The notes beneath the pieces are model-generated. The model saw nothing but the letters and a program-made list of their open reading frames with translations, was not told the origin of the DNA and did not search any database. Of a DNA stretch of 36,649 nt, positions 4,824 to 5,976 are shown piece after piece. Every line of letters starts with the position of its first letter. Position 1 is the first letter of the stretch. The translations under genes were made by a program, and so were the position numbers. Source of the DNA: Jimgerdemannia flammicorona (Eukaryota); assembly GCA_003990765.1 (NCBI GenBank), contig RBNJ01000209.1:1-36649 (forward strand), in the 5' to 3' direction.

Positions 4824-5976
4824 CTATGAGGAGAGGCATCTGGCAATGGTTTTGGCCATATCTTCAGCCTACATGATGACTCTGAAACCTTTATACTTAT
4901 TGTAGATTGCAGATTTTTTGTGATCATCTTGAAGGATGTCAAGCAGACAATCAATTGGACTAGCAAGATCCTCAATAGTGTAGCCTGAGATATATATAAA
5001 TACAATTATTTGTCTACAGATATAAATAAACCAATATTAATGAGTGTCATATAGCTACAATATTAACATAAATATTAAATTAACTTATCTAATTATTTTG
5101 GCATAGATGAAGTGTGAGACAGAATCTAGCTGCTGTTATGTACATAGCTTGTGGGCCATTCTAGAAATTTCTCATCAAGAAGTATCAACTCAATTAAATA
5201 TTAAGATAGAATGAGAATATTACTATCCTTAATATCCTCAAATTGACATAGCCAGGACATAGGTCCTGGCTATTTAAGTCTATATTCTAGAGTTTCCAGT
5301 ATAACCCATTCAGGATTGTTTAACTCTTCTATCAAATAAATGTCTTCACAAAGCCATCTAATGTAACTTACAGGAATATTCTTATGGTATTCATATTTAT
5401 AAGCAATTTGAAGTGCTATTATGCCTAAGATCTGAAGGTAATTCTTTGGAGCATCAACATTTGACAAAGTATGATCAATAATATGTATACATAGAAATAG
5501 TACTTCTGGAGAAAGTTGGAGATCTTGGTGGATAAGAACAATCCAATTTACAAGAATTTGGCAGTAGGATAAGCCAATATATGGCTATATATCTATATAC
5601 TTAGGATCTAGATTGTATTCAATCTGATTATATTTTAAATATGAGTAATGTAATAATTAATTTCAACTCAAAATATTGATAGATTTGATAATAGAATTGC
5701 TCACCTCTAATTCTTTTAAATACTTATAATAATTTCTTGAGTCATTGTCATCAACTATTGCTGGGAATATAATTTCATTATAATGCAAATATATATTTGC
5801 CAATCTACCAGATTGGAGAGAATATCTTGGAATAAGTGTCATTGGTTTCTTAAGTTGGTCTTTCTGATGAACATGGATACACTATGTCTGGTTTTGAATA
5901 AATCACCCTTTAAAGTCAGGTCCTATGTTCCAGAAATATTCTTTGCCCATAATTGCTATTTGGATGAAGGCATCAT
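4824..5976 (-). pseudogene. B-type (mitotic) cyclin pseudogene
   Basis: Minus strand reads NYYKYLKELE | intron 5624-5704 | IEYNLDPKYIDI*PYIGLSYCQILVNWIVLIHQDLQLSPEVLFLCIHIIDHTLS...LQILGIIALQIAYKYE...VILETLEYRLK*PGPMSWL...YLIELILLDEKFL...SGYTIEDL...AIYNKYK. This covers the cyclin N box and C domain, with several stops and frameshifts. The 5' end is uncertain. Confidence 0.85.

Follow-up and report, generated by a model that had tools for sequence, protein, structure and literature searches.

A dead copy of a divergent B-type cyclin-like gene in a CpG-depleted, repeat-rich region of Jimgerdemannia flammicorona DNA

We describe a cyclin gene, clearly dead, in a 36,649-nucleotide stretch of Jimgerdemannia flammicorona DNA (the window), and consider it likely that this locus is a genomic copy, made at the DNA level, of a short B-type cyclin-like gene specific to its lineage, a gene of which several copies arose in a Jimgerdemannia/Endogonales-type fungus. 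Mitotic cyclins are usually conserved and present in low copy number. Repeated copying of a divergent, short B-type cyclin, with decay of the copies afterwards, is unusual; it points to recent, burst-like gene amplification at the DNA level in a little-studied, repeat-rich mycorrhizal lineage. What is new, judging from a search of representative protein sequences, is that close relatives of the window cyclin are found only in J. flammicorona, where several are apparently decayed and one is intact.

Identity and gene structure of the cyclin

A first-pass annotation, made from the letters of the window, had placed a B-type cyclin pseudogene with N- and C-terminal domains at this locus, and our searches bear this out on the minus strand: Pfam, phmmer against the Protein Data Bank (PDB) and tblastn with the intact relative P0004 all identify it as such. 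The limits first given, 4824-5976, were also essentially right, lying within 10 bases of those indicated by tblastn and by a terminal TAG at 4826-4824 (Table 1). With P0004 as the query, residues 2-264 aligned to 5986..5117 and residues 277-327 to 4997..4845. The Pfam model Cyclin_N (PF00134) matched a 104-aa open stretch at 5584..5270 (E = 4.4e-19; 68.9 bits against a cut-off of 23), and did so again in a read-through translation carrying X at the stops (E = 1.6e-18; 67.1 bits). In that read-through the first half of Cyclin_C (PF02984) scored just below its cut-off of 22 (21.6 bits; E = 2.3e-4), and the second half matched the frame 5036..4869 (E = 0.014; 15.8 bits). Cyclin_C is split in the window copy by a probable second intron and a frameshift, and both domains are present in the precomputed annotation of P0004. 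These matches show the locus to be, in its predicted domain make-up, a cyclin with both cyclin folds.

Both predicted folds are shared with established B-type cyclins, including human cyclin B1 (PDB 2b9r) and the fungal Clb/Cdc13 proteins. Among solved structures, phmmer returned 45 sequences at E ≤ 1e-5; the six best distinct ones are all cyclin B1 (1.8e-15 to 1.6e-14), and cyclin A2 follows from 2.4e-11. By this measure of similarity, the window cyclin lies closer to the B than to the A cyclins. An Atlas model of P0004 aligns to plant cyclin B2-4 at a TM score of 0.77, suggesting a similar predicted fold, and P0004 keeps what we take to be the cyclin-box residues R, D, K and E. P0004 is short, with about 100 aa before the box in a total of 338 aa, compared with 400-700 aa in most of the fungal proteins among the HMMER matches listed. 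B-type cyclins carry an N-terminal destruction box, RxxLxxxxN; by eye, P0004 shows RPVL at this place but lacks the N, and no RxxL is seen there in the window copy. The window family thus differs from B-type cyclins in having no destruction box clear to the eye and in its long separate branch (see below), and the window copy also in being dead.

The gene model comprises three exons (Table 1). The stretch that we assign to intron 1 coincides exactly with a 27-codon gap against the P0004 protein in the tblastn alignment, and the exons are richer in G+C, at 31-36%. From its boundaries and composition it is clearly a retained phase-0 intron. A small tandem duplication is conceivable; the last nine codons bear a weak resemblance to the final part of exon 1. 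A second intron is probable, with limits set from the gap between the two tblastn pieces.

Splicing leaves no uninterrupted frame in the window copy. Seven stops lie within the exons, at least two frameshifts interrupt them, the donor of the second intron is degenerate, and no ATG is found at the position where P0004 starts. Each stop for which an aligned relative is available stands in place of a Q or W codon, as produced by a C-to-T or G-to-A change. This copy is clearly a dead gene.

Table 1. Positions of the cyclin pseudogene, its neighbor and repeats in the window, with the related protein fragments encoded on other contigs
Feature	Position	Strand	Description
Whole cyclin pseudogene	5986..4824	minus	about 330 codons after intron removal; tblastn with P0004, residues 2-327 of 338
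Exon 1	5705..5986	minus	short N-terminal region, ending ...YYKYLKELE; stops TGA 5905-5903 and TAG 5884-5882
Intron 1	5624..5704	minus	81 nt, GTGAGC...CAG, phase 0, 20% G+C
Exon 2	5089..5623	minus	Cyclin_N and first half of Cyclin_C; broken by four stops (5587, 5272, 5203, 5091) and, near 5140, a frameshifting indel
Probable intron 2	5014..5088	minus	75 nt, ATAAGT...TAG, donor G to A, 19% G+C; approximate limits
Exon 3	4824..5013	minus	second half of Cyclin_C (...ISGYTIEDLASPIDCLLDIL...); frameshift near 5000; stop 4871-4869
Neighboring decayed gene	929..3702	plus	Crinkler N-domain 929-1705, acidic repeat, recombinase-like part about 2503-3699
Repeat R, two tandem copies	421-573 and 623-789	plus	left of the cyclin/recombinase-like block
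Repeat R, inverted copy	6770..6936	minus	right of the block
Repeat R, further copies	7232-7338, 8534-8594 and 12043-12166
LTR-like direct repeats, 1.19 kb	7346..8531 (plus) and 14414-15598		88% identical, 45-49% G+C
Fragment P0005	contig of 11,955 bases		114 aa; 80-84% identity to window copy (84% over 93 aa)
Fragment P0154	contig of 3,226 bases		157 aa; 85% identity to window copy over 93 aa
Fragment P0155	contig of 5,216 bases		99 aa; 92% identity to window copy over 72 aa

A small cyclin family, probably confined to one lineage

An exhaustive HMMER search of 1.84 billion representative proteins returned 4840 matches at E ≤ 0.001, and only two of these, P0004 and P0005, reached 1e-30 or better. 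Among the best 150 of the 4840, P0006 comes next at 42-43% identity and all others are at 40% or below. P0004 is an intact 338-aa "cyclin-like protein" of J. flammicorona with 62-63% identity to the window copy (62% over 156 aa). Searching with P0005 yielded six candidates and three proteins, all annotated as hypothetical proteins of J. flammicorona under one locus-tag prefix. Three further searches returned nothing of significance: a word-index search of proteins that took the 104-aa open stretch as its query (23 candidates, none significant), and comparisons of the cyclin family alignment with metagenome contigs (165 pattern matches, none confirmed) and with viral contigs (88 pattern matches, none confirmed).

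The fragments P0005, P0154 and P0155 all start at internal positions of the cyclin. In P0155 the opening 8 residues, and in P0154 about 16 at the end, agree with translations of the window DNA in other frames, so these two loci appear to carry frameshifts of their own. To judge from these signs, all three fragment loci are decayed copies too. The stops X105 and X128 of the window copy align with an intact W and an intact Q in three of three fragments, a comparison made with short gene-finder proteins that avoid stops by construction. As far as such fragments can speak, they show that the lesions of the window copy are not common to the other copies.

We placed the family in a FastTree phylogeny of 153 cyclin boxes, in which support values are SH-like only and four rows of the family have an unusual amino-acid make-up. 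The window copy groups with P0155, P0005 and P0154 (support 98), then with P0004 (96) and next with P0006 and P0090 (99). The resulting seven-member clade contains only J. flammicorona members and two unnamed proteins. Its stem measures 0.50, compared with a median of 0.24 for the end branches. Two expectations of the first-pass annotation, that the cyclin is divergent and that it was amplified, are supported here: the first by the long stem, and the second by three fragmentary copies (84-92% identity) on separate contigs alongside an intact paralogue at 62%. The copy number counts three annotated protein fragments plus the window copy, and for the other copies it is a protein-level count. From these comparisons we conclude that this is probably a divergent, lineage-specific cyclin family. 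In one of its subfamilies, a gene whose frame was still open would have given rise to four or more copies at the DNA level, which then decayed one by one. At 62% identity, P0004 may not be the source gene.

Another representative in the search, P0007, is a protein of 1040 aa with two complete tandem cyclin units and segments that recur. Most probably, two cyclin genes duplicated in tandem in another organism have been fused here in one gene model.

Base composition and mode of decay

The cyclin region, 4824-5986 (1163 bases), contains no CpG dinucleotide, where about 27 would be expected, and the depletion extends over positions 1-7100, with 10 CpGs against an expected 157. In the cyclin the ratio (CpA+TpG)/(ApC+GpT) reaches 1.78, with values of 1.3-1.7 nearby; CpA and TpG are enriched, not depleted. 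Judged by these dinucleotide counts, the composition is the signature of methylated-CpG deamination, as in methylated repeats. We also considered repeat-induced point mutation (RIP) of the Neurospora type as the cause of decay and rejected it, since a ratio of 1.3-1.8 reflects no depletion of CpA and TpG. The cyclin and the gene next to it do lie in one CpG-depleted, AT-rich matrix, as first proposed, and they are alike in decay, with seven stops in about 330 codons in the former and 10 in 399 in the latter.

A Crinkler-headed neighbor and flanking repeats

The gene next to the cyclin opens with a Crinkler N-terminal domain (929-1705; Pfam E = 4.9e-17). An acidic, D/E-rich nine-base repeat at 1372-1554 appears to link this to the recombinase-like part; after a frame change near 2240 comes a 399-codon frame (2503-3699) with 10 in-frame stops. 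The Crinkler and recombinase-like parts probably form a single gene. By eye, the 399-codon frame contains Arg, Lys, (His)-x-x-Arg and Tyr in what we take to be the order of the tyrosine recombinases.

Searches with the recombinase-like part were less telling. Its Phage_integrase match in Pfam fell below the cut-off (E = 0.039; 14.2 bits against 27.1), Pfam gave no DUF3504 or GCR1_C match, and DUF3435 was not matched at E ≤ 1. Against the PDB, no recombinase appeared at E ≤ 10, the three matches obtained having E values of 0.26-0.71, and NCBIfam returned no relevant match. Language-model (Atlas) leads pointed to an unnamed eukaryotic cluster with NDC10_II on 16% of its members and to a bacterial cluster with Phage_integrase on 28%. 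An AlphaFold2 model built without an alignment was unusable (pLDDT 37.6). A metagenome search with the recombinase open reading frame (ORF) gave 180 pattern matches, of which one was confirmed; it spans only 15 residues, the ORFs of its 1.9-kb contig are unrelated, and we rejected it as a chance motif. On this evidence we regard the recombinase identity of the neighbor as provisional and weakly supported. Of the arrangement first described, a cyclin lying tail-to-tail with a recombinase, the geometry stands, with the cyclin about 1.1 kb from the stop of the plus-strand neighbor (~3700), and the recombinase label is the part in doubt. We found no description of a fusion between a Crinkler domain and a tyrosine recombinase in the open-access literature.

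A second ORF with a Crinkler N-terminal domain is found at 30827-31378 on the plus strand (E = 5e-16). It has only this domain in common with the first ORF, and across 225 bases the two are 76% identical in nucleotide sequence. Plus-strand ORFs downstream of it, to ~34100, have no Pfam match and no similarity to the recombinase-like part or the cyclin. Genes with a Crinkler header and different tails seem to be common in the window.

Inverted repeat pairs surround the block formed by the two genes: 421-573 with 6936-6784 (69% identity), 673-789 with 6886-6770 (72%) and 123-168 with 6998-7043 (76%). We examined these as candidate element ends and rejected them, since they are part of a dispersed repeat, repeat R, that also lies beside LTR-like repeats. 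Repeat R is AT-rich, measures about 120-170 bp and has six copies in the window, in both orientations and with 69-85% identity; several of them abut the ends of LTR-like repeats. No element ends enclosing both the cyclin and the recombinase-like gene could be defined in the window.

Origin of the cyclin copy

In the history that we favor, an open and probably functional cyclin gene would have been duplicated as DNA into repeat-rich regions. Each copy would then have decayed independently, mostly through C-to-T and G-to-A changes in DNA stripped of CpG. Because the stops of the window copy correspond to intact W and Q codons in the three fragments, an open gene appears to have been copied several times, with each copy decaying alone. 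The Crinkler/recombinase-like gene may be considered one candidate vehicle for this spread, and at present it is only a neighbor. Counter to this history, the tight spacing and common decay state of the two genes fit their descent as one unit.

Descent as a unit is the core of an alternative that we think unlikely, in which the cyclin would be an accessory gene of a Crypton-like element with a Crinkler-headed recombinase, and a unit spanning ~930-5990 or more would have transposed and so amplified the cyclin. The two genes converge at a distance of 1.1 kb, both are AT-rich, CpG-free and similarly loaded with stops, and a multi-copy cyclin with independent decay is what would be expected of the passenger of a once-active element. 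A precedent for a second protein exists, since some Cryptons encode a C48 peptidase, according to the part of PMC3212892 drawn on here. Set against this is the fact that the adjacency is a single one, in a repeat-dense region. The inverted repeat pairs that flank the block belong to a repeat with six window copies and are not a credible terminal repeat of a unit; Cryptons, moreover, are described as having no terminal inverted repeats in the portions of PMC13465315 and PMC3212892 that we used. The recombinase assignment is weak on Pfam, PDB and modeling grounds alike, the spacer at 3700-4830 has no second copy in the window, and the other Crinkler gene, at 30.8 kb, has neither a cyclin nor a recombinase beside it.

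Less likely again is death in place, whereby a tandem or segmental duplicate of a host cyclin gene would have been swamped by transposon insertions and silenced, with no mobile carrier involved. This would account for the retained intron and for a gene that is full length from the start region to the stop, the intact paralogue P0004 exists, and the surroundings are packed with unrelated repeats. The distribution of the copies speaks against it: the four copies, at 84-92% identity, group tightly in the tree and stand well away from the intact paralogue, and their location on separate short contigs resembles a dispersed burst, unlike one local duplicate.

A fuller version of the cargo account, more doubtful than either of these, is that a Crypton-like element of Endogonales with a Crinkler-headed recombinase spread its own intron-bearing, short B-type cyclin, and that both genes later decayed. 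Viral cyclins push host cells towards division. If this version were true, a transposon-borne cyclin could likewise have driven nuclei in a coenocytic host to divide, and the element would have profited. Such a role for the cyclin in manipulating the cell cycle, which the first-pass annotation had raised, is pure speculation.

Barely credible is a processed retrocopy of cyclin mRNA, whose sole recommendation is that retrocopying is a common source of dead, dispersed gene copies: as had been argued from the introns at the outset, retention of the 81-nt GT..AG intron, and of a probable second one, tells against it, and we noticed no poly(A) tract in the 3' flank below 4824.

Comparison with described systems

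The closest phenomenon described, in the part of PMC6710886 on which we draw, is the amplification of core fungal genes with the help of transposons, after which the copies are killed by mutation. The cases given there are a histone H3 gene captured by a hAT element in Pseudocercospora fijiensis and a DNA methyltransferase gene amplified in Zymoseptoria tritici. These resemble our locus in that a low-copy core gene has dispersed, mutated copies in AT-rich repeat blocks while an intact copy survives. They differ from it in scale and in mechanism. As that portion of the report has it, the carrier is defined by its ends and transposase and the copies number tens to hundreds, whereas here we count about four decayed copies and no defined carrier; the window copy, in addition, shows decay by CpG loss instead of RIP, and has kept an intron and its full length.

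Cryptons invite comparison through the recombinase-like C-terminal part of the neighboring gene. They are described, in the passages of PMC13465315 and PMC3212892 used here, as ending in short direct repeats of 4-6 bp and lacking terminal inverted repeats, and the Glomhopper/CryptonA elements of Glomeromycota are defined by DUF3504 in the same portion of PMC13465315. The neighbor is intron-rich and decayed, like many of the Glomhopper copies covered there. Unlike the Cryptons (CryptonF, CryptonS, CryptonA and Glomhopper), it has no DUF3504 match and bears a Crinkler N-terminal domain, and no terminal direct repeats could be defined around it. A Crinkler N-terminal domain in a Crypton was not found in the consulted portions of PMC3212892 and PMC13465315, nor did we find a Crypton carrying a cyclin in the open-access literature.

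Starships offer the idea of a tyrosine recombinase that mobilizes accessory genes in fungi; the part of PMC11162782 drawn on here describes them as elements of the Pezizomycotina, tens to hundreds of kb long, with a DUF3435 captain at the 5' end. We rejected a Starship for this locus: DUF3435 was not matched at E ≤ 1, the host is of Mucoromycota type, and the AT-rich block measures only ~7 kb.

The significance of the locus depends on whether the cyclin copies travel with the recombinase-like gene. We found no description of a transposon-borne cyclin in the open-access literature; if the copies do travel together, this would be, as far as that literature shows, the first transposon reported to carry a cyclin, and it would represent a tyrosine-recombinase element with cargo outside Dikarya. 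Should the copies travel separately, the locus would reflect ordinary dispersed gene duplication followed by methylation-linked decay.

Other features of the window

For context, we scanned with Pfam 98 of the 109 stop-to-stop ORFs of at least 70 aa in the window, together with the ORFs in 1-7000; only the Crinkler and cyclin matches passed. The first of two LTR-like direct repeats, at 7346, closes the AT-rich block on the right, leaving a block of only about 7 kb. No ORF of at least 70 aa in the ~5.9 kb between the two repeats carries a Pfam domain. Inverted partial copies of the repeat occur at 12158-12692 and 15963-16617 (both minus strand), and its inner part recurs in inverted orientation at 34562-36649. 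The element bounded by the 1.19-kb repeats looks like one of LTR type lacking recognizable gag/pol, possibly non-autonomous. Tandem or near-tandem arrays are also present in the AT-rich matrix, at 8593-9040 (period ~155 bp; 82-91% identity), 25410-25836, 27138-27877 and 22425-23037.

The sole stretch with near-normal CpG content is 18001-22000, where the observed/expected ratio is 0.8-1.1. An ORF in this stretch, at 21463-22059 on the plus strand (199 aa), resembles by eye a small, secreted, cysteine-rich protein; its translation has a signal-like segment at the N terminus and a hydrophobic segment at the C terminus, again by eye. The stretch 18001-22000 may be an island of live host genes among methylated repeats.
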